A stretch of DNA of 23,882 nt from a virus (taxonomy: Duplodnaviria; Heunggongvirae; Uroviricota; Caudoviricetes). The stretch is from IMG/VR virus record IMGVR_UViG_2585427765_000009. One strand, 5' to 3'. Below are positions 1-23,882 of the stretch, piece after piece. Both the position numbers and the translations under genes were made by a program. Positions within the stretch are counted from its first letter, which is position 1; every line of letters starts with the position of its first letter. Below the pieces are notes generated by a model that was not told where the DNA came from, ran no database searches, and saw nothing but the letters and a program-made list of their open reading frames with translations.

Positions 1-766
1 CCAGCTCCACTTCTGTCCGGTTTTTCCAGCTCTTACGGTGTATTACCTCCGCTTTGTAAAGGCCATTGATGCTCTCCGCCATCGCGTTGTCATACGAGTC
101 ACCAGTACTTCCTGTTGATGCCAGTAATCCGGCTTCCTTAAGCCGCTGTGTGTAGGCCAGCGATACATACTGAGAACCTTTATCACTGTGATGGACTGTG
201 CCGGACGGTTGACGGGCCCATAACGCCTGCTCCAGAGCATCCAGCACGAATGTCGTTTCCATAGACGATGAGACCCGCCACCCCACGATGTATCCGGCAA
301 ACACATCAATGATGAACGCCACATAGACGAAGCCCCGCCATGTGCTGACGTAAGTAAAATCAGCCACCCACAGCTGGTCAGGTCGTTCTGCCACGAACTG
401 ACGGTTTACGCGGTCGCCTGCGGCAACGGCTTTCCGGCTGATGGTCGTACGGACCTTTTTACCCCGGAGAACACCGGCAAGTCCCATAACCGCCATGAGA
501 CGTGCCACAGTGCATCTGGCCACTCTGATACCTTCCCGTAACAACTGACGCCAGACTTTACGCACACCGTACACCTGATGATTTTCATCGTATACGCGCT
601 GTATCTCTTTCTTCAGCCAGTCATCGCGCTGCGCACGGGCACTGCGTTTATCCGGATGATGTCGCTGTTGCTGACAGTGGTAATACGTTGACGGGGCAAT
701 ATGCAGTTCGCTGCATAGCGGTCCGACCCCGTACTGCTCACGCAGCTTATCCAGCAGTGGCATCAT
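1..766 (-). CDS. IS3-family transposase orfB (DDE catalytic domain), 3' end beyond window
   Basis: My translation from ATG at 766: MMPLLDKL...[31 protein letters not shown]...[11 protein letters not shown]; no stop before the window edge, so absent from the ORF track. Confidence 0.8.
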
Positions 767-1089
767 TTTTTCCAGAGGCGGTCGAACTCCGCCTTCGCAA
801 AATAAGCGGAAGCCTGGCGAAGGATATCGTTACTGCGGCGCAGTTCACGATTTTCACGTTCCAGCTCTTTCAGACGCTGACGTTCAGCGGTGGTGAGCCC
901 GCCATCACCGCCTCCGGTATCCCGCTCATGCTGGCGTACCCAGACACGCAGAGTCTCCGGTGTACAGCCAATCTTTGGGGCAATGGAACAAATTGCCGCC
1001 CACTGTGAGTCATATTCGCCCTGACTTTCCAGAACCATACGAATCGCTCTCTGACGGACTTCGGGGGAAAAACGAGTATTTTTAGTCAT
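763..1089 (-). CDS. IS3-family transposase orfA (helix-turn-helix / leucine zipper)
   Basis: 108 aa [22 protein letters not shown]...; SD AAGAGG upstream; stop overlaps orfB start. Confidence 0.85.
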
Positions 1090-1143
1090 CCTGTTTACCT
1101 CTTTCTCAGGGAGTTTAGTCTCCAGGATTCCCGGGGCGGTTCA

Positions 1144-3070
1144 GACTGTCTGGCAGCAGCAATCTGTCCTTCCACCTGTGCCTGTTGCTGACTGTACTGC
1201 AGCAATAACCGGGTGGCCTCATCATTACGGGGGTCGCGTGTTTTTTTCTTACCGGATGCCAGGGCTTTCTCGTAACGTTCATTTTCACGTTGTATCGCCG
1301 CATCCCTGACAGCCTGATCGGCGTACTGCATGGCATTAATACGCGCAATTTCACGCTGATGTCGTGCTGCTTCCGTTTCATTCATCCGGTTCAGTGCAGC
1401 ATTTTCAGCATTACGGCGTTTCTGTTGCTCCTGATAATTCCGCTCTGCCTGCTCTTTTGCATCCTGCAAATCCTTCTGGCGTTTTTTCTCCTGAAGCTCG
1501 TTAAGACGCTGCTGATCGTACTCAACCTGAGAAGATGATGCCGTCCAGGGGAGTCTTTTCGCCCGCACACTTTCTCCTGTAAAGCGGAAATCTGTTCATC
1601 CAGCGAGTCTTCACGACCAATATTCATGGCCGCATCCCAGAAACGACTCCATAAATCAGACAGATACTTCAGCGTACTGCCCAGCGCATTGAGGTTATTA
1701 TCAATATCCGCAGTACGCCGACCGGTTTCCTCTGCCAGTGCAGACATGGCTATCCGTGCCGCATCACTGGACCGCCCCTGTTCCCCAAGGACGCGTATCT
1801 GCTCAAGCTGAGTGGCAGTAAGAAAATGCAGCTCATTGTCCAGAGCCTTCGCGGCATTTACAGGATCATCCTTCAGCCGCTTAAACTGATTTATGGTATC
1901 GCTGACCGACTGGCCAACCGATCGCTCCATCTGTGCGGCAGCTCTCGCCACCATACCGATATCGTTTCCACGAAATGCACCACTCCCCACCACCTGAGCC
2001 AGCGCACCGGCTGCAGCATGTTGCGTAATACCATTCCCGGAAATAGCACGACTGAGCGTCCACAGCTGCCCGGCAGTGACTCCGGCATAATGCCCCGTCA
2101 GCGACAACTGGCGGTTAAATTCTTCCCCCTCCTTCTGACCATCATACCAGGCTTTACCCAGACCATAGACGGCCGCGGCAATACCGCCAATAACCCCGCC
2201 CAGCATCATGCCTTTCGGTGACATCAGTGTGTCTATCCATCCGGCACGGTTAGCCAGCGTTATCCCGGATCCCCTCAGCGCACCTAAATTGCCGCGAGCC
2301 AGTTCACCTATCAGAACGCCTATCTCCTGGCGGGCCGCTGCACTTTTCAGACCCAGCGAATGCGTGGCTTTTCCTGCCTGCTCCATTTTGCGGATATACA
2401 CTTCTGCAGCACTGCTTACCCCCAGCTGGGCTGCCTTGGCACGAAGCAACTCAGAAGAAGAAAGATTCTGGCGGGTTGCCTGCTCTTTAAGCTGACGGAT
2501 AAACGCCACTTTCTGTCGGGTAGCCTCTGCCTCAGCCTGCGTAAGAACACCGGTTTTCGCCGTAACCTCAGAAATCAGCGCCAGATAATCCTGCTGACCA
2601 ACCCCGCCACTGTTTCTGGCCTGTCGGATCTGCTGCTGAATACGCTGTAATTCCTGCAGCCCCGCACTGGCCTGTTTCACACTGTCAATCTGACGATAAA
2701 ACGCGGCAGCCGCTTTATCCTGAGCCTCCGCCAGAGCCATGGCCTGCGCCTGTTCCTCGCGCATTTTCTGGCTCAGTGCCTCCATACGCTGGCGGGTTTG
2801 CTCCACCTCGCGGGCCATGCGTTCATGAGCCTGTGCGCTCTTCTCCACCGTCTGCGCATGGACGGATGCGGCTGTTGCAGCCGAAGAAGCCGCCTGCATT
2901 GTCTGCCGGGCGGCCTGAGTCTGACGCTCCATAAAACGCTGCATACGGGCAGAAGACCGTTCTGCATCGCTGGCTGCACCATTCAGAAGGTTTTTGATAC
3001 GGGGAATTTCATTTTTAAACTCTGCCGCATCAATCCCCAAATCAATGACCAGGTTGGCTATCTGGTCCAT
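1144..3070 (-). pseudogene. H: Tail tape-measure protein (lambda H-like), frameshifted near 1545-1575 and truncated by the IS insertion at 1143/1144
   Basis: N-terminus MDQIANLVIDLGIDAAEFKNE resembles lambda H MAEPVGDLVVDLSLDAARF; SD GGAGGTG before ATG at 3070; coding continues in a second frame (ORF 1095..1568) that reads into the IS terminus. Confidence 0.8.
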
Positions 3071-3371
3071 AACGCACACCTCCGGAAATACCTTCTCCAA
3101 GATGCATCAGTTCTTCGTCCGTTCGCTCCGGTATCCCGTTCTCTTCCGGTAAAAGGCTGAAATCAGCCACCGCAGCATCACTGCTGCCGGACACCATTCT
3201 CACGATCAATGCCTTCAGCGAGGCAAACTGCGCATCCATCCACACATCACTGAAGCTCTGCATCCGGAAATAATCGCCCCACTCACCAAGCTCAGTGGCC
3301 GACATTTCCGACAGCATCCGCCGCCAGTCTGCCCGCCGGAACTCCCGGGCAAGCCGCATGACAAACTGCAT
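3042..3371 (-). CDS. T: Tail assembly chaperone T segment, expected to be made as a G-T fusion by -1 frameshift
   Basis: ORF lies in the -1 frame relative to G and overlaps the G 3' end; position between G and H as in lambda. Confidence 0.65.
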   Translation of the reverse strand: MQFVMRLAREFRRADWRRMLSEMSATELGEWGDYFRMQSFSDVWMDAQFASLKALIVRMVSGSSDAAVADFSLLPEENGIPERTDEELMHLGEGISGGVRYGPDSQPGH

Positions 3372-3379
3372 TTCCCGCG

Positions 3380-3769
3380 TCAGGACTTTTCCGGCGTCAG
3401 CGCCTCATGCTCATCATCCCCGGCATTATCAATGGCCCCCATACCGCTCAGCGACAGAACCATCTCCGCCCCCGCACCCAGGGCATCATACGACCATGTT
3501 GTAATAACGGATGCGCAAAGCGTCTCTACATCCTTAGACTGATCCGCATTCCACAGTGAGCGGGAAACCAGCCAGGCATTGATATCCATCCCCATCCGCA
3601 GAAAAGCAATCTGTCGTTCAGCCTCCGGCAGTTCTCCCTCCCCGGCATCAAACTTTGCCGTTCGCTGCTGAACAAACGCCAGATATTCAATTCTCTGCAG
3701 CCCGGACAGCTCACTGAGCACCACGGACTGTTTTTCATAATTAAACGTGCCCTGTTTCAGAAACATCAT
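3380..3769 (-). CDS. G: Tail assembly chaperone (lambda G-like)
   Basis: MFLKQGTFNYEKQSVVLSELSGLQRIEYLAF matches lambda G MFLKTESFEHNGVTVTLSELSALQRIEHLAL; SD GGTGGAGA before ATG at 3769. Confidence 0.8.
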   Translation of the reverse strand: MMFLKQGTFNYEKQSVVLSELSGLQRIEYLAFVQQRTAKFDAGEGELPEAERQIAFLRMGMDINAWLVSRSLWNADQSKDVETLCASVITTWSYDALGAGAEMVLSLSGMGAIDNAGDDEHEALTPEKS

Positions 3770-3826: not shown

Positions 3827-4570
3827 TTAACCTGCGGCGCTGACAGCCACCGCAGCCACGGCCACAAAATCGCCGTCAGAAGTCATGCCCACAATGCTGA
3901 CACTGCCCTGCTTCACGCCTTTCACCGTGGCCACAAGCCCGTTCAGGGTCACCGTGGCAGTCTGTGGATCTGTCGAATGTACACTGATCGCTTTGTCACT
4001 GGCTCCGTCAGGTTTTACTGTAAAGGTCAGCGTGGTGGTTGCTCCCACTTTTACACTGGCAGATGCTGGTGCCACCGTCAGCCCGGTAACGCTCACTGTT
4101 TCAGTGCCTTCCTCTGCCAGATGCGGACGCCCCACACCGCTGATTTTCACTGTGCGGGTCATCACGTCTTTTGAGGCAATGGTTTTACCCAGTGAGCTCA
4201 GCCAGCCACGGAAAACATCAACAGTGCCGTTGGGATATTTGATACGAAACGCGCAGACTTCACCGGAGTCGAACAACTGAACCAGTTTTTTCTGCCCGCT
4301 GTCACCCGGACGCCAGGCCAGCGTCGCCGAAGTATCACCGACGGATTTCTGCCCCTGGGTTGTCGTTTTCCAGTCTGCATCTTCATCATCGAGATAAGTG
4401 TCATCTTCTGCATCAGCGGTCATTTCGCCAGGTTGCAGATCCTTCACCATCGCAAGACGCAGCCAGTCAGTGTCCGATAAAGGGTTCGCAAACGCATCGC
4501 CCTTGCCGGTGTACATCCAGAACGTCGTTCCCGCACCTTTCGTTTTTGCCAGTGGATTTGGTGTGGTCAT
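3827..4570 (-). CDS. V: Major tail protein (lambda V-like) with C-terminal Ig-like domain
   Basis: MTTPNPLAKTKGAGTTFWMY...LDDEDADW...NGTVDVFRGW aligns with lambda V along its length; SD AAAGGAGGTG. Confidence 0.9.
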   Translation of the reverse strand: MTTPNPLAKTKGAGTTFWMYTGKGDAFANPLSDTDWLRLAMVKDLQPGEMTADAEDDTYLDDEDADWKTTTQGQKSVGDTSATLAWRPGDSGQKKLVQLFDSGEVCAFRIKYPNGTVDVFRGWLSSLGKTIASKDVMTRTVKISGVGRPHLAEEGTETVSVTGLTVAPASASVKVGATTTLTFTVKPDGASDKAISVHSTDPQTATVTLNGLVATVKGVKQGSVSIVGMTSDGDFVAVAAVAVSAAG

Positions 4571-4581
4571 TGCCACCTCCT

Positions 4582-4983
4582 TTAATTCGTGTACGTGATC
4601 TGGTACGTGATTTCCGCCATCGCCCAGGTGGCCATCTCATTATCACGTTGATAGTTAAAACCGAGAGGGATCAGGGTGTCGATGAGTCCGGAAAGTGCCG
4701 GTATATCATTCAGAGCCGGGAAAATGGTGCTCTCCATCCACATATCCAGCTCTGAATCCGGTGCCTGTGCCCGAATGAAGACAGCAATATGCAGAACAGC
4801 CTGCCAGTCATCTTCATCCGTCATTTTTCCGGTGTACTGAGCATCACTCAGCCACACCGCCACGGCAGGCAGTTCCTGCGCATCAATAAATGCCGGAAGC
4901 CCGTCAAAAAACGTGGCGCTGTCTCCACACTGTTCCCGAAGGCGTGCCAGTACGGCCTGGCGGATTTGTGTATGTCGGTTCAT
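4582..4983 (-). CDS. U: Tail terminator protein (lambda U-like)
   Basis: TFFDGLPAFIDAQELPAVAVWL...DSELDMWMES...DIPALS matches lambda U; ATGA overlap with upstream gene. Confidence 0.9.
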   Translation of the reverse strand: MNRHTQIRQAVLARLREQCGDSATFFDGLPAFIDAQELPAVAVWLSDAQYTGKMTDEDDWQAVLHIAVFIRAQAPDSELDMWMESTIFPALNDIPALSGLIDTLIPLGFNYQRDNEMATWAMAEITYQITYTN

Positions 4984-5558
4984 CGGGTCAGCCATAACCT
5001 CAGTTGTTGTTTCAGTGCATACCCCAGCTGTTTCGGCATTTCCGCAGCAATAATGCGGTCGCGGGCATCTTCAAATGCCTGTGTCAGCGGTCCGGACAGC
5101 GGGACTTTCACCACATCAATGGGGTAACGATTTTTGCCATCAATACGCCGCATCACATGCCAGCGACCATTCGCCAGTTGCTGAATAAACGCATCCCGGA
5201 AAAGATATTTACCCACCTTCAGCACACTGCCACGGTACTGCAGTTTTCCACCACGCCGGGCCAGTCTGACCCGGGCTGTCCCCAGCTTAATAGCGGGCAG
5301 ATTGCCCCGGTTAACGCGGATCCTGGCCGTCATTTTTCCTGACGGACTGGCTTTCAACACCCGGACACGCTGACGTACCAGTTTCAGGGGGATCCCTTTC
5401 ACCTGGTTATCTCCCGCAACGGTATTCCCGGCAACCTGCCGGGTGGCGACCGAGACCGCTTTCTGTGCCACACGGTTTATCGCCCATGCGCTGGCCTGTG
5501 GCACCATACGGGTATCAAGGCTGTTCAGATTACGGATGGCATTCTCAAGCCCCTTCAT
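4980..5558 (-). CDS. Z: Minor tail / head-tail joining protein (lambda Z-like)
   Basis: 192 aa; MKGLENAIRNLNSLD...GRWHVMRRIDGKNRYPIDVVK...LGYAL matches lambda Z as recalled. Confidence 0.8.
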   Translation of the reverse strand: MKGLENAIRNLNSLDTRMVPQASAWAINRVAQKAVSVATRQVAGNTVAGDNQVKGIPLKLVRQRVRVLKASPSGKMTARIRVNRGNLPAIKLGTARVRLARRGGKLQYRGSVLKVGKYLFRDAFIQQLANGRWHVMRRIDGKNRYPIDVVKVPLSGPLTQAFEDARDRIIAAEMPKQLGYALKQQLRLWLTR

Positions 5559-5569
5559 CCCACACCTCT

Positions 5570-5845
5570 TTACTCAATAAAGATCATTGGCTTACCGTTA
5601 AAACGTTCATGCCGTGTGACCGTCCATTGTTGTCCGTCATAAACAACGCGATCCCCGCGCCGTGGGCGGTATCCCGAAGAAAACACCACCAGAGAGACCG
5701 CAGGTCCGGACAGAGCATTCAGCTCTGCCAGTGTTTCTCCCGGGATCACAGTCATATCGGCATCATTAATCGAGGCTGTCTTTCCCATCTTTCTGACCGT
5801 GATCGCATCCATACGCGCTGCCAGCCGGGAAAAGGGATCAGACAT
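5570..5845 (-). CDS. Head-tail joining protein (lambda FII-like)
   Basis: 91 aa; RRGDRVVYDGQQWTVTR resembles the lambda FII RRGDTLTIGEENFWVDR region; gene order. Confidence 0.55.
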   Translation of the reverse strand: MSDPFSRLAARMDAITVRKMGKTASINDADMTVIPGETLAELNALSGPAVSLVVFSSGYRPRRGDRVVYDGQQWTVTRHERFNGKPMIFIE

Positions 5846-6161
5846 TGAGTTTTACCGGCACTTCTTCTGCACTGGTTCCGGCATCTGCCCAGACAACCCC
5901 GACCAGCGGATCAGAGCCGCTGTTAGTCAGCTGAACTTTTCCGGACTTCAGATAAACCTTCTTACCCGTTTTCATGTCATCCGTTTTCAGCTTAGGTAGC
6001 ATAAACACACCTTCGGTCATGCCGTCGCCTGTTTCACCCTGTGGAATATCGGTCAGCGCCACCGCAAAAACATCACCCACCTGCACCAGATCTCCGCTAC
6101 TGATGGCTGCACTGGCAACAATCGCCACCGTTTTTCCTTCTTCTACAAAATTCTTTGCCAT
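5838..6161 (-). CDS. Small head-associated structural protein (DUF2190-like, tentative)
   Basis: MAKNFVEEGKT...GDLVQVGD...; SD GGAGA before ATG at 6161; directly downstream of the capsid gene. Confidence 0.5.
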   Translation of the reverse strand: MAKNFVEEGKTVAIVASAAISSGDLVQVGDVFAVALTDIPQGETGDGMTEGVFMLPKLKTDDMKTGKKVYLKSGKVQLTNSGSDPLVGVVWADAGTSAEEVPVKLNV

Positions 6162-6203
6162 AACTGTCTCCGCACAGCCCCGTTCAGGGGCTGATTTCAG
6201 GTA

Positions 6204-6223
6204 CAAAAAAAGCCCTTACGGGC
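6204..6223 (-). terminator. Predicted intrinsic terminator downstream of the capsid gene
   Basis: Minus-strand GCCC-GTAA-GGGC followed by TTTTTTTG. Confidence 0.5.
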
Positions 6224-6247
6224 CATCAGAGTTGTTGTCTGCGACGT

Positions 6248-8206
6248 TTACGCCGTACATTTCACCAGACCGCGGTGATCAACTGGCGCGACACCGGCGT
6301 CAATACGCACTTTCGTTGTCACGCCATCCACACTGAAGCCCTCCATCTGATCAATATATGGCGTATCCACACCGTTGAGATAAGCCACTTCAATCGTATC
6401 GGAGCCTTTTGACGCAGCCAGGTAGAAGGTGGTCTGGCTGTTATCATCAAGACGAGGCTCTGCAATAACGGTCGCAAAATCTTTCACCGGGTTAATAATA
6501 CCGGCGTTAATGTCAGCCCCCTTGACACTTGAGGAGCGAATGACCTGGTTAGCAACAGACTCCATCGCCGTCGGTACCAGTACGAACGCAGGACGAATAT
6601 TCAGATGACGCTCCCCCTCTTTCTGAACGCGCATCAACTGGCGGGCTTTATCCAGCGATGCCACGTCCATTGCAGCGCTCTCCAGTACGTTTGTATGTTT
6701 CGCTTTATCGAACAGACTTACATTATCTGTGGAGATTTTCGGGTTAGACGTCAGAATGGCATAAACCAGATCGGCAATAGTGGATTTCGCCGCACGGCCC
6801 AGCTTCATCGGGACATCGGTCAGCATATTCAGATCATCATTGATAATGGCCTGACGGGTGATACTGAACAGCTCGCCATAGGTCGCCAGTGCAATAGTGG
6901 CCTGTTTATCTCCGGTGGTGACGTATTTATATTCCGCCCCTTCACGCACCTGACGCAGAGCACTGAAGCCCCCCATACCCACACGATGGGCAATTTTAAA
7001 ATCAGACAACTGACCTTTCCGCGTCCACTGTTCATAGGTTTCAGGGGCATCTTCCCAGCCCTGCAGAATGGCTTTGTTCGCAACATCCAGCAGAATATTA
7101 CCGAAGTCAGACGTACTGTGTGTGAACGCCGCACCGACCATCTGCATCGGGTTATAACTGGAAACCCCAATACCCCGTTCAGTCAGTGACATACGGGCAT
7201 ATTCACGCAGGGTCATCCCGTTGTAGACATTATCACGTTCGGTTTTTTCAAATCCGGCACGCGCCATCAGCGCCTGGCGGATCCCGTCCCCCACAAAATT
7301 ACCGTTACCGGCATAAATATGAGCCGGGGTATTTTTATTGGATGGCGTGGACTCGCGCCCCATCTCGTTCAACAGCTTTTCGCGGGCCTGCTCCAGCGAA
7401 CATTCAGGATCGGCAAGACACTGAGCCTGCAGCGTCTGATAACGCCCGCCAAACATGGCAAACAGATCATTAATACCGTTTACACGCGCTTTTTGCTCTG
7501 CCAGTACCTGCGCACGGATGCTGTTTTCATCCACCACGGGTGCTGCTGCCTGCACTGGCGTCCGGGAGGCTTCAGGTTCATTATCCTGTACGCGTGGAGC
7601 ACTGTTGCGTGGCGGAGTAATCATGTTTCGAATGGATTCCGGCATCTTTTTAAATTCCTCTGTACGTTTTGACTGAATACATGCCATTGCCTTAACGGCT
7701 GGCGTTACCTGATCAGCAAATCCCTGTGCCAGACATTCGGCACCGGACATCCAGGTCTCATCCGCCAGCATGGCAGCAATTTCATCGGTGGTTTTCCCGG
7801 TTTTCTGTGCATAAGCGGGTAACAGAACCGCCTCAACTTTATCGAGCAGGTCGGCATAGGTGCGCATGTCCTCCGCATCACCGCCCGTAAAGCCAAATGG
7901 TTTATGAATCATCATGAAGGTGTTTTCCGGCATAATGACCGGGTTTCCCACCATCGCAATGACCGACGCCATTGACGCCGCCACACCGTCGACATAAACG
8001 GTAATGGACGCACCATGTGTTTTCAGTGCATTAAAAATGGCGATGCCTTCAAAGACATCGCCACCCGGTGAATTAATATGGAGATTAATATGGGTGATAT
8101 CGCCCAGTGCATTCAGATCACTGATAAACTGCTTCGCTGTAACACCCCAGAAACCAATCTCGTCATAAATATAAATATCCGCGTCACTCTGGTGACCAGC
8201 CTGCAT
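6248..8206 (-). CDS. Prohead protease (ClpP/S14-like) fused to HK97-fold major capsid protein
   Basis: N-terminal region has INSPGGDV and GVAASMASV ClpP-like motifs; central coiled-coil linker; C-terminal ~330 aa capsid-like; start taken at ATG 8206 (MQAGHQ) just after portal stop, not at 8467. Confidence 0.75.
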   Translation of the reverse strand: MQAGHQSDADIYIYDEIGFWGVTAKQFISDLNALGDITHINLHINSPGGDVFEGIAIFNALKTHGASITVYVDGVAASMASVIAMVGNPVIMPENTFMMIHKPFGFTGGDAEDMRTYADLLDKVEAVLLPAYAQKTGKTTDEIAAMLADETWMSGAECLAQGFADQVTPAVKAMACIQSKRTEEFKKMPESIRNMITPPRNSAPRVQDNEPEASRTPVQAAAPVVDENSIRAQVLAEQKARVNGINDLFAMFGGRYQTLQAQCLADPECSLEQAREKLLNEMGRESTPSNKNTPAHIYAGNGNFVGDGIRQALMARAGFEKTERDNVYNGMTLREYARMSLTERGIGVSSYNPMQMVGAAFTHSTSDFGNILLDVANKAILQGWEDAPETYEQWTRKGQLSDFKIAHRVGMGGFSALRQVREGAEYKYVTTGDKQATIALATYGELFSITRQAIINDDLNMLTDVPMKLGRAAKSTIADLVYAILTSNPKISTDNVSLFDKAKHTNVLESAAMDVASLDKARQLMRVQKEGERHLNIRPAFVLVPTAMESVANQVIRSSSVKGADINAGIINPVKDFATVIAEPRLDDNSQTTFYLAASKGSDTIEVAYLNGVDTPYIDQMEGFSVDGVTTKVRIDAGVAPVDHRGLVKCTA

Positions 8207-8219
8207 CCTGAACCAGGAA

Positions 8220-9728
8220 TTATTCTTCGGACTGGTCGTCGGTGTGCTGCGGCTCCTGTCGTTTCGTTGCGGCACTGCTGCCTCCTTTATCACTGGCCGG
8301 ATCGGTATCAAATACCAGATCCAGCTTGCGGTTTTCATCAATTTCGGCCTTGCGCCGACGTTTGACATCATCCGGATTACGACCACCAGCACGTACCCAG
8401 TCTGATTCTGTCGCCGCTCCACCACGAATCTGGATTTTCCAGGCCTCAGCCTCCTTAACAGGGTCAATCCACGGCATCACCGGTCCGGAATACACCGCGG
8501 TATACAGTGAAGAAAGGTCAAGATCGCGGGGTAGCCTGATAACACCGGATGCCACAGCCTGTTTCAGCCAGGCACGATACATCGGACGGGTGACGGCACC
8601 AATAAACCAGTCCTGCAGGATCAGGTAGCCATCAGTGGATTCAACCAGCTCCTGACGCTGGGCGCTGTAAGTGCCGTTATAGTTGCGCGCTGTACTGGAA
8701 AAACTCAGACGACTGCCCGCCGCCACGGCACGCAACTGACCATTACGAAAAGTTTCAAGGTTAGGATTTGGGCGATCCGACTTCACCATTCCGATTTCTT
8801 CGCCGGGTTTCAGATCATCGTAAATAATGCCTGGCTGAATGGTAAGCTCGCGTTCCTTATCCTTGCTGCCATTACCATCCGCTTCATAGCTCTGCCCGTC
8901 GCCTTTCCGGATGTACATCCCCAGAGCAGCGGCGATCCTTGCTGCAGTCAGCTCAGAATCTTCATACTCTTTCAGGGCACTGAGGCGGATCAGCACACCG
9001 GACAATAAAGACGTCCCGCGCATCTGGTGCAGACGGCGAACAAATTTAAGATGCAGCATTCGCTCTGCATCCACTTCTTTGGTTTCCATCTGCCGTCCGG
9101 ATACGGGACGGCTTTTATACACCAGATATTTTTCGGGACGCCCCCAGTCATCAACAAACACGCCCTGATTCAGCCTGTTGCTCTCATCACTGGTCATGGG
9201 AATAAAGTCCGGCTCGAGCGCCTCCAGCCAGAAATGAACACCGGCAGAAGGCGTCAGGCTGTTTATGCGCCCGGAAACCATCTGGGCAAACACCTCACCA
9301 TCGCGCAGCCAGGTACGAAGCATCAGACGTTCCAGCATCGGACGGGTAAACTGCCCGGTGACTTCCGGGCTGACAGACCATTCACTCCATCGGGTGCGAA
9401 TCTCCGCAGCCAGGTCACGGGCAATGGCCCCATTGCGTAATACCGGATGTGGCTCGACAATAATCCCGTTTTTCCCCACCACCCGTTCTTCCAGCTTGTC
9501 AAATACACCAATAACCAGATCGTGGTTGTTATCAAGGTAACGGGCCTGCTCACGTAACGACACGGCCCCGTACTGGCTTAACTGGTCGGCAGTTCGGTTC
9601 TCCCGTCGGGCTTTGTGTGTCCGCGTCGTTTTTACGGCCTCATAAGCCTGGATCACCGCACGGGAACGCAGCCTTGCCGCTTTCCATCCTGGTGAAAAAA
9701 CGCCAATCACATCATCAAGAATTGCCAT
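8220..9728 (-). CDS. Portal protein (lambda B-like)
   Basis: ~500 aa ORF between W-like gene and protease-capsid; start at MAILDD with ATGA overlap at 9728. Confidence 0.75.
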   Translation of the reverse strand: MAILDDVIGVFSPGWKAARLRSRAVIQAYEAVKTTRTHKARRENRTADQLSQYGAVSLREQARYLDNNHDLVIGVFDKLEERVVGKNGIIVEPHPVLRNGAIARDLAAEIRTRWSEWSVSPEVTGQFTRPMLERLMLRTWLRDGEVFAQMVSGRINSLTPSAGVHFWLEALEPDFIPMTSDESNRLNQGVFVDDWGRPEKYLVYKSRPVSGRQMETKEVDAERMLHLKFVRRLHQMRGTSLLSGVLIRLSALKEYEDSELTAARIAAALGMYIRKGDGQSYEADGNGSKDKERELTIQPGIIYDDLKPGEEIGMVKSDRPNPNLETFRNGQLRAVAAGSRLSFSSTARNYNGTYSAQRQELVESTDGYLILQDWFIGAVTRPMYRAWLKQAVASGVIRLPRDLDLSSLYTAVYSGPVMPWIDPVKEAEAWKIQIRGGAATESDWVRAGGRNPDDVKRRRKAEIDENRKLDLVFDTDPASDKGGSSAATKRQEPQHTDDQSEE

Positions 9729-15040: not shown

Positions 15041-15128
15041 CTTTTATTCACTTACGTTTCGCCAGTTCGCAGGATTTCATGTTATCCGCCCGCGTGGCCA
15101 TGCCTTATTTTTCAGCAAAATATTCTGC

Positions 15129-15662: not shown

Positions 15663-15717
15663 GGATATTTATCAGGATGCTACCAATGAAAGATACCGGA
15701 AAGCCAACTGCAAAAAG

Positions 15718-16032
15718 CTAACAACCCGTAATCGAGTTATCAGAACTGTTAATTTTTATGGTATACCGCGCCTCTGAACAGGGGCGCGTTTCTGGCAACA
15801 GCTCGTCCCCTTCACATAACCCGGCAGCAACATCCAGGAAGACCTGTCTGATGCTCCTTCTGGCTGCTGACTCATAAAACTCCAGCGCGGCACCTTCAAC
15901 ACGGTCCAGCGAGATGTCCAGGGCAAAAATTTCACCGTCAAAGCGTTTTTTGTCCCGTAACGCTAAAGTTACCGTAACTTTATTCTCAAAATTGCGGATC
16001 CCTTTCACAATCAGTTCATATTTTTGAGTCAT
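15718..16032 (-). CDS. Hypothetical soluble protein inserted between holin and endolysin
   Basis: 104 aa; ATG 5 nt after holin stop with SD GGGGAGAG; no TM or signal peptide. Confidence 0.6.
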   Translation of the reverse strand: MTQKYELIVKGIRNFENKVTVTLALRDKKRFDGEIFALDISLDRVEGAALEFYESAARRSIRQVFLDVAAGLCEGDELLPETRPCSEARYTIKINSSDNSITGC

Positions 16033-16036
16033 TGAA

Positions 16037-16252
16037 TTACTCTCCCCGTGCAGCCTTACGCTTGTCTTCTTTAATCTTGAAATAAAGGTTTGTCAGGTAC
16101 GTCAGCAGGCCAAATACCAGGCTACCCAGCACACCTATTGCTGCCCACTGTGAGGGCGTGACTTTATCGAGCAGCTGTAAAAACCAGTAGCCAGCACTGC
16201 CTGCGGAGGTGCCGTAGGCAATGCCTGTTGAAATTTTGTCCATGGATTTCAT
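16037..16252 (-). CDS. S: Pinholin, phage 21 S-type, dual start
   Basis: [71 protein letters not shown]; SD GGAGGTG; the ORF-track extension to 16309 is rejected. Confidence 0.9.
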
Positions 16253-16503: not shown

Positions 16504-16899
16504 CTAACCTCGCATGTCAAAGCCAGATTTCTGAAAATCTCTGTAGACTTCCGGATTGTTGAAGGCCGGAAATTTGGCTTTATGAGCTGCGGACTTTATC
16601 GCTTCGCAATAGGCTTTATCACCGTTACTGGTAGATATTTTTAACGCCGTGCCATCCTGAGAGAATTCCATATGCAACCTGCATTTTTTCCCTTTCCAGT
16701 TATGCGGCTCATCAAGTTTGGCATTAATTGCAGCTCTGATTCCCCGCGCTTGCGCCCCCCATTCATCCTGATCATCCCAGCGTCCTGAACTGCAACTACC
16801 TGTAGCAGTAGTTTTGTGGCAATCTGAAGGGTGTAAAGGTGTGCATCCCGCAACAAAACCGACCCAAAAAGTCAACATAACGATTTTCTTTAATCCCAC
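16504..16899 (-). CDS. Lipoprotein with TolA domain III-like C-terminal domain (paralog 2)
   Basis: GTG start with SD GAGGAG; lipobox VAGC; C-terminal KGKKCRLHMEFSQDGTALKIS...YCEAIKSAAHKAKFPAFNNPEVYRDFQ aligns with the TolA C-terminus. Confidence 0.75.
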   Translation of the reverse strand: MGLKKIVMLTFWVGFVAGCTPLHPSDCHKTTATGSCSSGRWDDQDEWGAQARGIRAAINAKLDEPHNWKGKKCRLHMEFSQDGTALKISTSNGDKAYCEAIKSAAHKAKFPAFNNPEVYRDFQKSGFDMRG

Positions 16900-17049
16900 T
16901 TCTTGCTCCTCAATCCATTAAAATCTCAGCAATAGTAGTTGTTACGTCCGCCACTGGCTCAGAGCTGACTATCCGCTAAATTTAGCTCAGTGCCGTAGTT
17001 GTGTCAGAACAAACCTAAGCCGAAACCGTTTATTACAAAACAATAAATA

Positions 17050-17478
17050 TCAGGGTTTAAAATCCAGCACCCCATTTTGAAATACTTTATATACTTCCGG
17101 CGAAGGGGGGGCAGGTATATCAGCATTCTTTATCGCATTCATCGCTTCACGACATAAATCGAGGTCTCCACTTTCTCTTTTAACCTCCAGTAGAAGGCCA
17201 TTCGGGGCCATATGCATTCTCAGTGTACACTCTTTTCCTGAATACTTACTCGCATCCCCGAACTGTTTTTCGATGGCGCTCTTGATTTGATGGGCATACA
17301 GACGGATATCCTCACTAACATCAGAAGTACGTTCAGATGAACTCACATACTGTGTCTCTATTGCTTTATCGGAGTAATATGATGTACGGTCATGATAATT
17401 TGTCGATACAGCATCAGTGCACCCGATAATAATCCCACTAATAATCAACGTAAGAATTGATGCGCTACGAAAACCCAT
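17050..17478 (-). CDS. Lipoprotein with TolA domain III-like C-terminal domain (paralog 1)
   Basis: Lipobox IIGC; QIKSAIEKQFGDASKYSGKECTLRMHMAPNGLLLEVKRESGDLDLCREAMNAIKNADIPAPPSPEVYKVFQNGVLDFKP versus TolA QIKSAIESKFYDASSYAGKTCTLRIKLAPDGMLLDIKPEGGDPALCQAALAAAKLAKIPKPPSQAVYEVFKNAPLDFKP (recalled). Confidence 0.8.
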   Translation of the reverse strand: MGFRSASILTLIISGIIIGCTDAVSTNYHDRTSYYSDKAIETQYVSSSERTSDVSEDIRLYAHQIKSAIEKQFGDASKYSGKECTLRMHMAPNGLLLEVKRESGDLDLCREAMNAIKNADIPAPPSPEVYKVFQNGVLDFKP

Positions 17479-17507
17479 TTTTCCTCACATATGTCATATA
17501 GTAAAGG

Positions 17508-17537
17508 ATTATATATACCGTTGTTTTGGATGCTCAA
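17508..17537 (-). promoter_or_regulatory. Candidate sigma70 promoter for TolA-like lipoprotein 1
   Basis: Minus-strand TTGAGC, 18 nt spacer, TATAAT, about 30 nt upstream of the start codon. Confidence 0.4.
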
Positions 17538-18011
17538 ACAGCGAATCAGATCAAATAAAACGCACATTTGTTAACATTTACACAAAGTCTGCGTGGGATA
17601 TTCTGAAAGAATATCCATAATGTAGAGAGAATCTATTGAAGTGCATGGTGCCGGGTGCCTCCCGGTGAATTCAGTACCAGCACCTGAATCCGCGATTATC
17701 CCATATACCTACTGGCTGATTGCCCCTCCGCACAGGGGGATTCACCATGCCAGTTTCTTTTAACAAACTCCCCGCAAACCAGACAACAGTCAACCGCCTG
17801 AATTGTGAAGTATTTAAAAATTTCTCCCGCTAACTGATACCCGGCTAACAGTCTGGCGTTTTCTTTTTCAGCAACGGGAAAGCAACAACCACCACACCCG
17901 CCACCAGCACACCGTCAGCCAGCACTGACATTATCCGGCTGCTGCAATGCCATTCACAAAAACAGTAAGCAATCACTTTTTACCGTAACAGGTGATAATC
18001 CAGATATGTAT

Positions 18012-18475: not shown

Positions 18476-18552
18476 TGGCGCGCTGTACTGGATTCGAACT
18501 AGTGACCGATTGCTTAGAAGGCAATTGCTCTGTCCGGCTGAGCTAACAACGC
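18476..18552 (-). tRNA. tRNA-Arg, anticodon UCU
   Basis: 77 nt cloverleaf folded by hand: acceptor GCGTTGT/ACAGCGC, D-stem GCTC/GAGC, anticodon stem ATTGC/GCAAT, loop CTTCTAA, T-loop TTCGAAT, CCA encoded. Confidence 0.8.
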
Positions 18553-18652
18553 TGAATACCGATAATGGACCGCCATCGGGGACCCGCCCCCGCACCAACA
18601 ACCCTGTTATCGCGTCGTCTGCTCTTCCTGATAAGCTAATGGCGGTTTGTGA

Positions 18653-18728
18653 TGGTGGCCCTTGCTGGATTTGAACCAGCGACCTGGCGATTATGAGTCG
18701 CTCGCTCTCACCACTGAGCTAAAGGGCC
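18653..18728 (-). tRNA. tRNA-Ile2, anticodon CAU (lysidine type; software may call it tRNA-Met)
   Basis: 76 nt; near-identical to E. coli ileX as recalled; acceptor GGCCCTT/AAGGGCC, anticodon loop CTCATAA, T-arm GCTGG-TTCAAAT-CCAGC. Confidence 0.8.
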
Positions 18729-18761: not shown

Positions 18762-18791
18762 CGCAATAAAAAACCCGCTCGGCGGCGGGTT
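18762..18791 (-). terminator. tR'-like intrinsic terminator of the late leader transcript
   Basis: Minus-strand AACCCGCCGCCGAGCGGGTT followed by TTTTTTATTG, ~45 nt downstream of the candidate pR'. Confidence 0.6.
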
Positions 18792-18871: not shown

Positions 18872-19693
18872 TTACCTAGTTACCTTTTTTAACTGCCGCT
18901 CAGCCCATGCTTCTTCAATATCAAACCGGGTCACCAGCGCATCATAGAATTTCTTAACTGTTTTTTCCCATGACGCGCGTGTTATCTGGTTTGTCACCTC
19001 GCATATAGCATTAAATGCCTCCGTTGATGGTAGTCTTTCATAGCCACGACCACCACAACGCTGGCAGTCTCTGATAACAGGCATACCACGTTTTACCGAC
19101 TCTTCACGGTGAATGGCGACACCACGCCCACGGCAATCCTTACAGGCGGTGGAAACCTCACCCTTTCCGCCACACTCCGGACAGGCAACTTTTACCACCT
19201 CCCTGACTTTTTTCCATTCTTCCCAGTAAGACGGATACACACCTTTCGTACACTTTGCCCATACCGGCGGCTTACCATCCGGATACTGGACCTTGTTTGT
19301 AAAAACTACGCTTTCAATAAATTTTTCCCCATAGCAACAAGGGCACTGCTTTTTACTCGCTGCGCTGCGGGCATAATCCTCAAAAGCGTACGAAGCCATA
19401 ATGCGCATCACTACCGGTTTTATTTCTGCCGGAAGTTTTCTCAACGCCGCCACACGATCGCACCGACTGAGTGCATAATCTGCCAGTAATTCTGTTGCCC
19501 GCGCCCTGTCATTCATACTGATGCCCATTTTCCCCAGGAACGCAGAAAACCCCATCTCAGCCCGATTCTGTGTCATGCCCTGCGCGGCCATCACATCAGT
19601 GATACTCAGCGCATCTTTTGACGTTGAGGCCGATGCATCGGTCAGGCAAGGGGATTTTGGGGAGTAGTATTTCGGTAAATCTTCCAGTTTCAT
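18872..19693 (-). CDS. Late-gene antiterminator, Q-like (Cys-rich, zinc-binding type)
   Basis: Position between rusA and pR'/tR'; CxxC clusters CPCC, CPECGGKG, CKDCRGRG, CQRCGGRG; ATGA overlap with rusA stop. Confidence 0.65.
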   Translation of the reverse strand: MKLEDLPKYYSPKSPCLTDASASTSKDALSITDVMAAQGMTQNRAEMGFSAFLGKMGISMNDRARATELLADYALSRCDRVAALRKLPAEIKPVVMRIMASYAFEDYARSAASKKQCPCCYGEKFIESVVFTNKVQYPDGKPPVWAKCTKGVYPSYWEEWKKVREVVKVACPECGGKGEVSTACKDCRGRGVAIHREESVKRGMPVIRDCQRCGGRGYERLPSTEAFNAICEVTNQITRASWEKTVKKFYDALVTRFDIEEAWAERQLKKVTR

Positions 19694-20064
19694 TTTTTGA
19701 CCTGCTCTTCATGCATTATGGGGTAAATCTTCACCCCCAGACGTCCACCAGATACTGGCTGACCACGAACGATATTGATTTCATCAAACTGCTCATCGTC
19801 CATTAACACTCCCGCATGCGTCAGCGCATCCAGCGGTGCTTTCAGGATATTGTCCAGGTCGCGACGACGCTTATCCGGTGGCTCTGCAATCACCTTTATC
19901 GCCAGCCTTCCGGACAGGCTTAATTTCAGCCGCTGCTGGCGAACAATAAGCGCCACAGCCCGGCGATAACGCTTTCCCTCCTCCGAGATAAAATATGTGC
20001 TGCCACGGCGTCGCCAGTAAGTGTTCACCGTCGGCGGGTAAGGTAAAACCAAATCTATGAGCAT
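19690..20064 (-). CDS. rusA: Holliday junction resolvase RusA
   Basis: LPYPPTVNTYWRRRG...DKRRRDLDNILKAPLDALTHAGVLMDDEQ matches the RusA DxxRRDLDN motif; SD AAGAGGTGA. Confidence 0.9.
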   Translation of the reverse strand: MLIDLVLPYPPTVNTYWRRRGSTYFISEEGKRYRRAVALIVRQQRLKLSLSGRLAIKVIAEPPDKRRRDLDNILKAPLDALTHAGVLMDDEQFDEINIVRGQPVSGGRLGVKIYPIMHEEQVKK

Positions 20065-20076
20065 CAGTCACCTCTT

Positions 20077-21126
20077 TTACCCAAGCACGCCAGTTGCAAA
20101 GGCGTGATCAAGAAAACGAAAGATTAAATCAACCTGAGAACCATGCTTTTCTTCGAACGCCAGCGGATCCGCATGAAGCTCGTTGTGATGCTCCCGACAC
20201 AGCGGTAGCGTGAAAATATCGTGAGATTTTGTCCCCATTCCGCCCTGACCATGACCAATCAGGTGATGGGGATCGTCGGCTGGCTTACCACAACACGCAC
20301 ACGGCTGTGTCTTCACCCAGCGTGTGTATTTCTCGTTAACCCAGCGGCGACGTTTAGGTCGTTTCATAAAAGATTCCGGAGACTCAGGATCAACGGCAAT
20401 GCTTACCACCGTCTTTTCCTGTAGTGGGTGTTGTTCCTGGTGGGCGTGAGGCAACAGTGCAAGATTTTTTGTGCGCTGTTTCAGTATGCTGGTGGCGGTC
20501 TGCTCTCCCGGTACGATGTCGCTTTCACGGTACATTGAGCGGATTTTTTCCGCACGCAACCCCAGCGAACGACGTAATACCGCTTCCGGTAGCGCGTCCG
20601 CCACCTGATTGCGGACCGCCCACCAGGATAATTCAGCCAGAGATAATTCACGCTCCTGCGTACCGCTTATTGCGTGACCGATGACGTCAATCATCCATGC
20701 TGACAGGTTTTGATGAGCAAGTTGCTCGAGTGATTCGGATGTCTGGTCACGCAGTTGGTTGTCGCAGTGCCAGCACAACACCATTGCGCCGGTACCATAA
20801 CGGTGAATGACGGTTTCGCTGTGATGATAATCGCCGTGTGGCCACTGGCAGGATTTAATATGGCGCAACAGCCAGTCAGACAATGCACCAGCACCACCAG
20901 CAGCACGAATCACCCGTGCGTTACTGAAAAACGGCAGCAATGTTTTGTCTTCCACCAGCGGCTGGCGAGCGGCAGGAACGACCCCGGACGGCAGATTACG
21001 CATGCTTTTCGGTTCCGGCTCCACCAGTAACCGGGTATTGTGGAATACCGGCATGGATTCACGGCCCGGCTTAACGATCACCAGCCCGAGTTCCGGTACC
21101 AGAACAGGTCGAAGTAATACCCGCAC
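20077..21126 (-). CDS. DUF968-like prophage protein (YdfU-like) with C-terminal HNH-like Cys/His motif
   Basis: 349 aa; GTG start with SD GGAGG; C-terminus CACCGKPADDPHHLIGHGQGG...CREHHNELH. Confidence 0.65.
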   Translation of the reverse strand: MRVLLRPVLVPELGLVIVKPGRESMPVFHNTRLLVEPEPKSMRNLPSGVVPAARQPLVEDKTLLPFFSNARVIRAAGGAGALSDWLLRHIKSCQWPHGDYHHSETVIHRYGTGAMVLCWHCDNQLRDQTSESLEQLAHQNLSAWMIDVIGHAISGTQERELSLAELSWWAVRNQVADALPEAVLRRSLGLRAEKIRSMYRESDIVPGEQTATSILKQRTKNLALLPHAHQEQHPLQEKTVVSIAVDPESPESFMKRPKRRRWVNEKYTRWVKTQPCACCGKPADDPHHLIGHGQGGMGTKSHDIFTLPLCREHHNELHADPLAFEEKHGSQVDLIFRFLDHAFATGVLG

Positions 21127-21127
21127 G

Positions 21128-21406
21128 TTACCTCCAGATGCGTTGCTGGAATGTGTGGGACGGACGCGGTGGGCGTTCGGAGTAAGGCAATCTGACTGAG
21201 ATTATCCAGTGACGGTAGTCGAGGCTAAGGGCTTTTTTAACCTCGTATCCGCGCCTGCGGTAACACTGAATTATCCATTCAGCCTGCTCTTCAGTGCATG
21301 GTGGATGCTGGAACCAGTCCGATTTGAATGCATGAAAACGCCGTCCGCACCTGCTGGCAAAGACGGCAGAATCATCAGAATTGTGTAATTTGGTATCGTG
21401 CGCCAT
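21128..21406 (-). CDS. Hypothetical protein coupled upstream of the DUF968 gene
   Basis: ORF ends 1 nt before the DUF968 start; start uncertain (ATG 21406 or ORF-track start 21517). Confidence 0.45.
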   Translation of the reverse strand: MAHDTKLHNSDDSAVFASRCGRRFHAFKSDWFQHPPCTEEQAEWIIQCYRRRGYEVKKALSLDYRHWIISVRLPYSERPPRPSHTFQQRIWR

Positions 21407-21864: not shown

Positions 21865-22020
21865 TTACTCCTCAGGTTCGTAAGCTGTGAAGACAGCGAC
21901 CTCCGTCTGGCCGGTTCGGATTCGTACCTCGCAGAGGTCTTTCCTCGTTACCAGTGCCGTCACTATGACGGTTAAACAGATGACGATCAGGGCGATTAAC
22001 ATCGCCTTTTGCTGCTTCAT
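21865..22020 (-). CDS. hok: Hok/Gef-family type I toxin (HokD/RelF-like)
   Basis: MKQQKAMLIALIVICLTVIVTALVTRKDLCEVRIRTGQTEVAVFTAYEPEE, near-identical to Gef/HokC as recalled; SD AAGGAGAAG; ORF-track start at 22077 is an in-frame upstream ATG. Confidence 0.9.
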   Translation of the reverse strand: MKQQKAMLIALIVICLTVIVTALVTRKDLCEVRIRTGQTEVAVFTAYEPEE

Positions 22021-22278
22021 AGCCTGCTTCTCCTTGCCTTTCGGCACGTAAGAGGCTAACCTAGATTTGCCGTTCATAGATTGAGCCTCAGATTAATGTT
22101 AAACGTCTTGCAGGACGCGTAATGTTAACTGGGGCTTTTCTCTATCTGCCTTTGGTGTTCATGCCCGAGGCAGATAGCCTCAAGCACCCGCAGTCATTCT
22201 ACTTAACTAAGATTTCCCCGCAAACCGTTTTTGTCCAGCACAATAAATATCCAACTAAACCAATGGAGTTCGCTGTAT

Positions 22279-22458
22279 TTACCGCCAGTATTCAATGCAC
22301 ATGACCGCCATGAACACCCCTAAAAAAAGGGCATTTATATATCCAAATATTAATATCAAAACATCAACTTTTTCCATATACCTTGCTGTGAAGATGATGG
22401 GCATACATGATACGAACAACCAGAACGCAACAAACAAAAACTGCAATGCGTTTTTCAT
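22279..22458 (-). CDS. Hypothetical small membrane protein (59 aa, two predicted TM helices)
   Basis: ATG 22458 with SD AGGAGG; MKNALQFLFVAFWLFVSCMPIIF...ILIFGYINALFLGVFMAVMCIEYWR; AT-rich. Confidence 0.45.
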   Translation of the reverse strand: MKNALQFLFVAFWLFVSCMPIIFTARYMEKVDVLILIFGYINALFLGVFMAVMCIEYWR

Positions 22459-22671
22459 TATTCCTCCTACAATCAATGCGCAATTACATTTAAACACACC
22501 TCAATTTGGCCGGACATATAAATATCTAAACTAGAAAAAATCACTTACATAGCGTTACAAACTCTTTAGTCTAAAGGTTCATCGTAAAACATTCCCCATA
22601 CTTATCAGTCCGTTCCGTGCCAGGTAGCTTATTGCCTTATCTGGCAACCTATATGAATCGCCACAGATAAT

Positions 22672-23484
22672 CTAGACACTTCCGAGCCGCTGATAATATT
22701 GTTTTTCGTATTCAGTTGGTGGCATATGATCACTCGAACCATGCCGACGCTTACTGTTATAAAACATTTCGATGTAATCAAAAATATCACCGCGAGCTTC
22801 TTCTCGCGTTCCGTAGATCTTTTTCTTTATCCGTTCACGTTTCAGTAACTGGAAAAAACTTTCTGCGACTGCGTTGTCATGACAGTTACCGCGACGGCTC
22901 ATACTGCCCTCCAGCCCGTGTGATTTCAGGAACGACTGCCACTCATAGCTTGTGTACTGACTGCCTTGATCAGAATGAACCAGCACCTGCTTTTGAGGAT
23001 TACGTCGCCACACGGCCATCAGAAGTGCATTCAGGACAATATCCTTTGTCATCCGGGGCTGCATTGACCAGCCAATAACTTTGCGCGAGAACAGGTCAAC
23101 AACCACAGCCAGATACAGCCAGCCTTCGTGAGTCCGGATGTAGGTGATGTCCGTTACCCAACGCTCATCCGGTGCTTCCGGGTTGAACTGCCGCTGGAGC
23201 CTGTTGGGCGTCACGATGCTGGTTTCACCCTTACGTGCCCGTGGGCTACGGTACCCGACCTGAGCCCTTATCCCGGCACGCTTCATCAGTCGCCAGACAC
23301 GGTTAACTCCGCACTGTTGTCCGGTATCCCGCAGGTCGAGGTGGATCTTGCGATAACCATAAACGCAACCCGACTCCAGCCAGAACTGCTTTATCAGCCC
23401 CGTCAGTCTCAGGTCAGCATGATGCCGCCGTGAATCCGGCTGCTGAAGCCAGGCGTAAAAACCACTCGGATGCACATCCAGCAC
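22672..23484 (-). CDS. IS3-family transposase orfB (DDE domain); true N-terminus supplied by frameshift fusion with orfA
   Basis: WVTDITYIRTHEGWLYLAVVVDLFSRKVIGW...HSDQGSQYTS...NAVAESFF motifs. Confidence 0.85.
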   Translation of the reverse strand: MLDVHPSGFYAWLQQPDSRRHHADLRLTGLIKQFWLESGCVYGYRKIHLDLRDTGQQCGVNRVWRLMKRAGIRAQVGYRSPRARKGETSIVTPNRLQRQFNPEAPDERWVTDITYIRTHEGWLYLAVVVDLFSRKVIGWSMQPRMTKDIVLNALLMAVWRRNPQKQVLVHSDQGSQYTSYEWQSFLKSHGLEGSMSRRGNCHDNAVAESFFQLLKRERIKKKIYGTREEARGDIFDYIEMFYNSKRRHGSSDHMPPTEYEKQYYQRLGSV

Positions 23485-23540
23485 CCGACAAAGCAGTCGG
23501 ACAGGCCAGCAATGGGTGTTGTCACGGATAAAGGCGTACC

Positions 23541-23819
23541 TCAGTCGGACAGCTTTGCGAAGTACGCCGCGGCTTTTTTTAATATGTCCCGTTCGTCGGT
23601 AACCCGCTTCAGCTCTTTCTGGAGGCGTCGGATCTCAGCCTGAGCGTCTGACTGGACTTTATTGGTTGAGGAATCCGGGCCATATGCCTTTATCCAGGCA
23701 TAAAGACTGTGGGTGGTGATACCGAGACGTGTTGCCACGCTGGAAACAGAATGGCCGCGATCAACAACCTGTTTTACCGCTTCAATTTTAAACTCTTCGG
23801 GATAACGCTTACCGCTCAT
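23541..23819 (-). CDS. IS3-family transposase orfA
   Basis: HTH region plus leucine-zipper-like C-terminus ending AAAYFAK; SD GAGAGGTG; ORF-track GTG at 23825 or ATG at 23819. Confidence 0.85.
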   Translation of the reverse strand: MSGKRYPEEFKIEAVKQVVDRGHSVSSVATRLGITTHSLYAWIKAYGPDSSTNKVQSDAQAEIRRLQKELKRVTDERDILKKAAAYFAKLSD

Positions 23820-23882
23820 GGGCACCTCTCTTTAAGTCATCTTAAATGACTCTGAGGTGTCTGTTAAACCCGTGGCGATTCA

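Follow-up and report, generated by a model that had tools for sequence, protein, structure and literature searches.

The cryptic prophage Qin of Escherichia coli K-12 occupies the chromosomal site between ydfJ' and rspB. It keeps its immunity and early region (dicA/dicC/dicF/dicB and relBE) together with an int pseudogene, has lost its head and tail genes, and carries an insertion sequence (IS), an IS2 remnant beside the pseudogenised intQ. Prophages at the Qin site range from 11 to 97 kb, and loss of the integrase has been proposed as a route by which they become grounded (PMC6379469). Here we describe a stretch of 23,882 nucleotides (hereafter the window) from the virus record IMGVR_UViG_2585427765_000009, which is part of a lambdoid prophage at this same site, between ydfJ' and rspB. 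Like Qin, it uses the site's 11-bp attachment (att) core, is defective and bears IS elements. In its gene content it is the reverse of Qin: the late region is nearly complete, whereas the early and integration regions are deleted, with the deletion extending into rspB. The best explanation, which we consider highly probable, is that three lesions made this Qin-site prophage defective, namely an IS in the tape-measure gene H, a frameshift in the same gene, and the insertion of a second IS (the right IS) accompanied by an adjacent deletion.

When the whole window was compared by megablast with 5,426 complete E. coli genomes, it matched over its full length only once, on the chromosome (NZ_CM128603.1, 2388733-2412614, reverse strand) of E203449, a strain from human stool in Mali. 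The window and the RefSeq chromosome differ by two single-nucleotide polymorphisms (SNPs), at 2602 and 9733, and the source is therefore probably another assembly version of E203449 or a sister isolate that shares the same structure. About 100 other genomes match window 1144-22208 only, so that both IS elements and the final ~450 bp of phage DNA are left unmatched. We give the chromosomal context in coordinates of L001, the E203449 region that includes 13 kb on either side of the window (window position = L001 position - 13000). According to the E203449 annotation, rspB, rspA, ynfA, ynfB and speG lie to the right of the window, and further phage genes, followed by a 5'-truncated ydfJ, ydfI and ydfZ, lie to its left.

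The att core GAAATCCATAA defines the limits of the prophage. It falls exactly on both annotated ends of Qin in K-12 and is also present at both prophage ends in strain MLI107 (NZ_CP116987.1, Mali), which has a seemingly complete prophage at the same site that is 99.0% identical over 18.9 kb of the window and has the same gene order and cargo. Unlike the window, the MLI107 prophage carries neither IS and has an intact H of 1021 amino acids (aa), a full early region, xis, int, attR and a full-length rspB. In E203449, the core is present beside ydfJ (attL) and absent at the rspB end, because the attR core has been deleted. The remnant as a whole thus spans ~37.5 kb (record 2388733-2426208), of which the window is the right-hand 23.9 kb, about two thirds. 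Across it, annotation and family matches give the lambdoid late order of Q, lysis, terminase, portal, protease/capsid, tail, H, M-L-K-I-J and side tail fibre.

Within the window alone, phage DNA is visible only between two IS elements, and the initial annotation took the locus for a remnant bounded by both of them. Members of the IS3 family are ~1.2-1.55 kb long and have imperfect TG...CA terminal inverted repeats, a 3-4 bp target-site duplication, orfA and orfB joined by a -1 frameshift, and a DDE (rve) transposase. The features at the left edge of the window are:

1-1143, minus strand: left IS, of the IS629/IS1203 type (IS3 family), with 1143 of its 1310 bp in view and its orfA-proximal end at 1143.
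763-1089, minus strand: orfA of the left IS, which matches the IS3 transposase model NF033516; orfB falls only in part within the window.
692-808, minus strand: ALIL pseudoknot (RF01497), which stimulates the programmed frameshift in the left IS and scores 120 bits (gathering score 50).
1144-1146, no strand: GAC, the right-hand copy of the 3-bp target-site duplication, whose partner lies beyond the window at L001 12831-12833.
1144-3070, minus strand: 5' fragment of the tape-measure gene H, codons 1 to ~642 of 1021.

The full left IS (L001 12834-14143) is 1310 bp long and has TGAACCGCCCCGGG at both ends in inverted orientation. Its length, its TG...CA ends, its frameshift-joined open reading frames (ORFs) and its 3-bp target-site duplication are those of an IS3-family element. 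With the IS629/IS1203/IS3411 group it shares the 1310-bp length, the TG...CA termini, the -1 frameshift between orfA and orfB, the ALIL pseudoknot, the 3-bp duplication and the location in a prophage. The Prokaryotic Genome Annotation Pipeline (PGAP) records a programmed frameshift in its transposase and does not assign it the name IS1203. It is ~99.8% identical to copies in other E. coli and 96.0% identical, with 52 nucleotide differences, to a copy in O157:H7 that PGAP does name IS1203 family. 'IS629-like', the name first given to the element in which the window begins, is a fair label, in keeping with the terminal repeats and the ALIL and NF033516 matches. In O157, 62% of IS629 copies lie in prophages, and IS629 generates target duplications of 3-4 bp (PMC3271280).

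Upon comparison with the uninterrupted H of MLI107, which has only one GAC at the corresponding position, the left IS proves to be a simple insertion. GAC flanks the element on both sides, and beyond it the prophage continues for a contiguous 13.6 kb. This stretch begins with the 1149 bp that complete H, followed by M, L, K, I, J, lom, stf (which encodes the side tail fibre) and tfaQ, and reaches up to the att core beside ydfJ; M through tfa are annotated as intact. Since the duplication is present on both sides and the tail-tip genes are contiguous beyond it, the left IS is not a prophage boundary, and no flanking DNA was lost when it inserted; the apparent boundary arises from where the window was cut. 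We give almost no credence to a reading in which the remnant ends at the two IS elements and IS activity removed the tail-tip module along with the early one. Contiguous tail-tip genes and a duplication around the IS are what the initial annotation had itself named as evidence against its reading, and both are found at the left IS; on the early side, neither the missing genes nor a duplication was found at this locus in E203449.

Gene H was described as broken, and it is in fact broken twice, independently. In addition to the IS insertion, a 1-bp deletion at window 1566 (CGCGAC to CGCAC, not in a homopolymer) throws H out of frame near codon 501, and a premature stop follows downstream at 1391-1393. 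The IS as the sole lesion of H was considered and rejected: in silico removal of the IS together with one GAC fails to restore the frame, because the 1-bp deletion remains.

The right edge of the window has a different history. Its features are:

22209-22653, no strand: last phage-side segment before the junction, which includes a 72-aa ORF and ends at the breakpoint, 22653.
22654-23882, minus strand: right IS, a complete IS3-family element of 1229 bp, with orfA at 23541-23819 and orfB reaching 22672.
23880-23882, minus strand: TGA, where rspB now stops, formed by the final three bases of the IS, whose terminal TCA is read on the opposite strand.

The last base of the right IS is the last base of the window. 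The element has the termini TGAATCGCCAC.../...GTGGCGATTCA, with repeats of the form TGAATCGCCAC(A/G)G... at both ends. Its transposase matches NF033516 at 334 bits against a cutoff of 160; PF01527 (HTH_Tnp_1) is found in orfA, PF00665 (rve), PF13276 and PF13333 are found in orfB, and an A7G slippery motif lies at 23573-23580. Length, TG...CA repeats, the orfA/orfB pair and the slippery motif all agree with the IS3 family. Copies that cover exactly positions 1-1229 at 99.9-100% identity on unrelated Klebsiella plasmids (PLSDB) confirm the ends independently, so that the window does end exactly on a second, different IS3-family element, as had been proposed. PGAP, NCBIfam, Pfam and PLSDB label it only as 'IS3 family transposase'. 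A literature search on the name ISEhe3 returned nothing tying that name to the sequence, and we leave the element unnamed. About ten places in the E203449 genome match it.

No target-site duplication surrounds the right IS, whose flanks (...CTATA on one side and CTGT... on the other) differ. This is the expected mark of a later deletion or recombination and no argument against membership of the IS3 family. Alignment with the MLI107 prophage (L003) locates what is missing. The phage-side breakpoint at window 22653 corresponds to L003 35206 and the rspB-side breakpoint to L003 45349, and in place of L003 35207-45348, a segment of 10,142 bp, E203449 has the right IS. The missing segment holds 16 whole coding sequences (CDSs), the 5' part of a nin-region pseudogene, attR and the 3' end of rspB. 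Among its genes are small nin-region genes, a replisome organiser, ydaT, cro-type and cI-type regulators, ydfA/B/C, dicB, ydfD, an exonuclease, xis and int; its far end takes in the attR core and 45 bp from the 3' end of rspB. As a result of the junction, rspB (L001 36880-37857) has lost its last 14 codons (DQKHCCKVLLTFSE) and ends on the stop codon contributed by the IS, giving an RspB of 325 aa versus 339 aa. In the RefSeq record the truncated gene is annotated as an ordinary Zn-dependent oxidoreductase. The exact junction is unique to E203449 among the complete genomes searched.

A right IS joined directly to rspB could also arise if the assembly had collapsed two IS copies into one, or if an IS-mediated inversion or translocation had moved the early region elsewhere. 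The right IS is indeed a repeat, matched at ten or so positions across the genome, and the record bears a whole-genome shotgun label. We sought the reciprocal junctions in E203449 with chimeric queries joining the IS end to the early region, and int/attR/the rspB 3' end to the IS start; neither was found there. The early segment is therefore gone, rather than moved beside another IS copy or hidden by a collapsed assembly. Moreover, rspB is still collinear with the prophage, which excludes a simple inversion, and the window shares the junction despite its two SNPs relative to the RefSeq record, which points to a second, independent sequence. We have accordingly rejected a relocated early region or a collapsed assembly, either of which is very unlikely, and conclude that the right IS marks a real IS-associated deletion. 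The proposal that IS-mediated loss fixed the prophage in a defective state thus holds for the right IS, with its deletion of 10,142 bp relative to MLI107, and fails for the left IS; likewise, the remnant is bounded by an IS on its right side, where the deletion enters rspB, and not on its left. It was the suggested alignment with an intact relative that yielded the endpoints of this deletion.

Two routes could have led to this deletion. It is one of three separate lesions, the others being the transposition of the IS629/IS1203-type element into H, a normal insertion with a 3-bp duplication, and the 1-bp deletion that shifts the frame of H upstream of that insertion. In the route that we favour, the 1229-bp IS would first have entered the 3' end of a nin-region gene lying just past hokD. 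A deletion anchored at the orfA-proximal end of this IS would then have extended through the early region and attR and 45 bp into rspB, leaving as its product phage DNA, IS and rspB' in direct succession with no target duplication. Two related genomes bear a variant of this IS, 89.5% identical and in the same orientation, close to this position. In PEC395 it sits 23 bp further in between clean 4-bp copies of GATT, with the early region intact. In mip270_04 it sits 51 bp further in, without matching 4-bp flanks, and is directly followed by the 3' part of int and a full-length rspB; this is a different deletion, of ~9.5 kb. A fixed IS end combined with varying far endpoints is the pattern expected of IS-adjacent deletions.

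A documented precedent comes from the E. coli long-term evolution experiment, in which 14 of 83 IS movements were associated with deletions, ranging from 14 bp to 48.9 kb; all 14 involved IS150, a member of the IS3 family, all lacked a duplication, and in every case a simple insertion had come first (PMC11708052). As at the right IS, the IS150 events left an IS3-family element at the edge of a kilobase-scale deletion with no duplication (PMC11708052). The order of insertion and then deletion was observed over time for IS150, whereas here it is deduced from one genome and two related ones.

In the second route, the 1229-bp IS would have been present twice in direct orientation, at the nin-region site and near the rspB stop, and RecA-dependent recombination between the copies would have excised the intervening DNA and left one hybrid copy. 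The end product would be the same, again without a duplication; E203449 has its ten or so matches to the element, and recombination between IS copies is a frequent cause of missing duplications (PMC11708052). None of the 5,426 genomes, however, has the right IS at the rspB site or the C-IS junction. The mip270_04 deletion, with nearly the same anchor and another endpoint, would call for yet another nearby insertion in the same orientation, and all 14 IS3-family deletions in the evolution experiment were traced to a single prior insertion (PMC11708052). We therefore regard recombination between two copies as a real but distinctly less probable route, and favour insertion followed by adjacent deletion.

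Several points weigh against our account as a whole. Adjacent deletion and two-copy recombination give identical end products, in a genome with some ten matches to the right IS. The size of 10.1 kb is an estimate from the closest complete relative, because lambdoid early regions are mosaic and that of the true ancestor may differ. The junction is known from assembled sequence rather than from reads. Finally, the evidence for the silence that we predict below for the late genes comes down to terminator-like hairpins that follow hokD and Q.

Between the two IS elements, the prophage retains the following features:

3042-3766, minus strand: tail assembly chaperones G (3380-3766) and T (3042-3371), intact (TIGR01674, TIGR01715).
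3827-12572, minus strand: tail shaft, head and packaging genes (V-like, U, Z-like, DUF2190, a ClpP-like protease/major capsid fusion, portal, TerL and a DUF1441 small-terminase-like gene), all intact.
13135-14039: accessory ORFs between packaging and lysis, a 68-aa hypothetical (minus strand) and a DUF1398 YdfO-like ORF at 13629-14039 (plus strand).
14359-16252, minus strand: lysis cassette (holin EssD, DUF1327, lysozyme RrrQ and an Rz-like lysis protein), intact.
16504-17976, minus strand: cargo between Q/tRNAs and holin, comprising ORFs for the TolA C-terminal domain (TolA-C), an STnc100 match and DUF3927 (17845-17976).
18476-18728, minus strand: two phage tRNA genes, tRNA-Arg(UCU) and a tRNA with a CAU anticodon (18653-18728), found by ARAGORN and PGAP.
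18772-18791, minus strand: terminator-like hairpin just downstream of Q (L001 31791-31772).
18872-19693, minus strand: late antiterminator gene Q, intact (PF03589, 184 bits).
19690-21406, minus strand: nin-type region with RusA, DUF968 (YdfU-like) and a 92-aa hypothetical, intact.
21865-22189, minus strand: toxin gene hokD (21865-22020) and an Rfam match to sok (22015-22189).

Each of the 25 annotated CDSs from hokD to G/T has an open frame and aligns over its whole length with its MLI107 counterpart, with 80-100% protein identity, which upholds the description of the late operon as intact from Q to G/T. The nin region (DUF968) is mosaic, being just 82-87% identical to that of MLI107. The closest free phages for the late module are cdtI, Tritos, PhiR47_1 and mEp460-type phages, and phage cdtI is 98.7% identical over the head-tail half. 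With K-12 Qin the prophage shares hokD, ydfU (DUF968), rrrQ, ydfO and homologues of tfaQ/stfQ at 85-98% nucleotide identity, and most of the window sequence has no match to Qin. At its left end (L007 468-2200), the E203449 prophage is without the ynfT-ydfK-pinQ segment that lies between attL and tfaQ in MLI107 (L003 721-2745) and in K-12; only one annotated hypothetical gene, of 198 bp, is found in its place.

The slot between Q/tRNAs and the holin gene is the position of the Shiga toxin (Stx) genes in Stx phages, and tRNA genes just downstream of Q are typical of lambdoid and Stx phages. Here this slot holds two ORFs with the TolA C-terminal domain (PF06519), at 16504-16878 and 17050-17478 on the minus strand (E = 1e-14 and 2e-23, respectively), both identical in MLI107. 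The second is annotated as a tolA pseudogene, yet its 142-aa frame is open. A full-length Rfam match to the small RNA STnc100 (RF02076) at 17587-17779 on the minus strand scores 113 bits against a gathering score of 47 and is unannotated in the RefSeq record. The tRNA with the CAU anticodon is called Met by ARAGORN and tRNA-Ile, of the lysidine-modified type, by PGAP. The hairpin at 18772-18791 sits at the position of the late terminator tR' and may act as such.

The interval from hokD to the right IS measures ~630 bp. Apart from the sok match it contains a single small ORF, which is unannotated, and it is free of immunity, replication and integrase genes, in agreement with what had been noticed from the window. 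The ORF (22279-22497, minus strand) lies in an AT-rich segment and encodes a hydrophobic product of 72 aa with two membrane-like stretches by eye and no Pfam match; it is kept beside the IS sites in PEC395 and mip270_04 as well as in MLI107. The initial annotation had also stated that the prophage keeps its cargo loci. The cargo is present, and the TolA-C ORFs, DUF1398, DUF3927, hokD/sok, the tRNAs and STnc100 are the same in the complete MLI107 prophage, at 100% protein identity for the cargo. Their presence consequently says nothing about selection, and a selective retention of cargo is not borne out.

The anatomy of the locus allows us to predict what the prophage can no longer do. With int, xis, attR, the replication genes and the immunity genes absent, and with H both interrupted and frameshifted, it is a defective prophage. 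It would be unable to excise, as it has no int, xis or attR; to be induced or to replicate, as it has no immunity region, early promoters or replication genes; or to build tails, as it has no functional H. The surviving late and accessory genes are intact as ORFs and probably silent. Because rspA-rspB, the IS transposase, hokD and Q all lie on the same strand and the 3' end of rspB is lost, transcription that starts at rspAB or the IS transposase might conceivably run on into Q and the late operon; judged from the sequence such read-through is unlikely, since terminator-like hairpins follow hokD and Q.

Both insertion sites recur in other genomes. In ~14 O157:H7 genomes, an IS1203/IS629 element occupies the identical nucleotide of H (window 1143/1144, L001 12833/12834 and 14143/14144; L006 4401-5710), in the same orientation and with the same GAC duplication. 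The target is CTGCTGAC|TGTCTGGCAGCAG and lies between a short inverted repeat, CTGCTG...CAGCAG. The O157 prophage that carries this insertion is a different one, located at bio/ybhB and bearing nleD, nleH, nleC and nleB2. The H flanks of O157 and E203449 are 99% identical and the IS copies 96%, with 31 of the 52 differences falling in IS positions 103-403. We therefore ruled out that O157 carries the same prophage with its H::IS629 allele, on the basis of the bio/ybhB locus and the nle genes, together with the greater divergence of the IS than of its flanks. The shared position reflects either a precise hotspot or a transferred allele followed by conversion of the IS. A hotspot in H would conflict with the report that IS629 has no sequence specificity (PMC3271280).

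The lineage of the 1229-bp IS, in its two variants, shows a similar recurrence. Three unrelated strains each carry an independent insertion, always in the same orientation, and the three sites cluster within ~50 bp where one nin-region gene has its 3' end (window 22653/22654, L005 6483/6484 and L004 6508/6509, corresponding to MLI107 L003 35206, 35229 and 35257). Two of the three are accompanied by differing one-sided deletions of the early region, which end in rspB or int. We tentatively suggest, as a possibility that we hold to be less likely than its opposite, that both IS types have narrow, orientation-specific hotspots in lambdoid prophages.

Prophage decay by IS insertion and IS-adjacent deletion is textbook knowledge. 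All parts of this locus fall into known families with high identity, and decay of this kind has been amply documented; the case is thus an ordinary one, already known in kind and of little significance beyond strain E203449. For annotation, its value is that the locus should be recorded as a defective prophage of ~37.5 kb running from ydfJ' to a truncated rspB, and not as a 22-kb remnant between two IS elements. The rspB gene of E203449 merits a flag as C-terminally truncated, with an IS-derived stop codon. The data on the two insertion sites may be useful for studies of target choice in the IS3 family and for strain typing by IS629 sites. If the hotspots are real, they would constitute a recurrent, semi-targeted route by which IS3-family elements ground prophages at the Qin site and related prophages.

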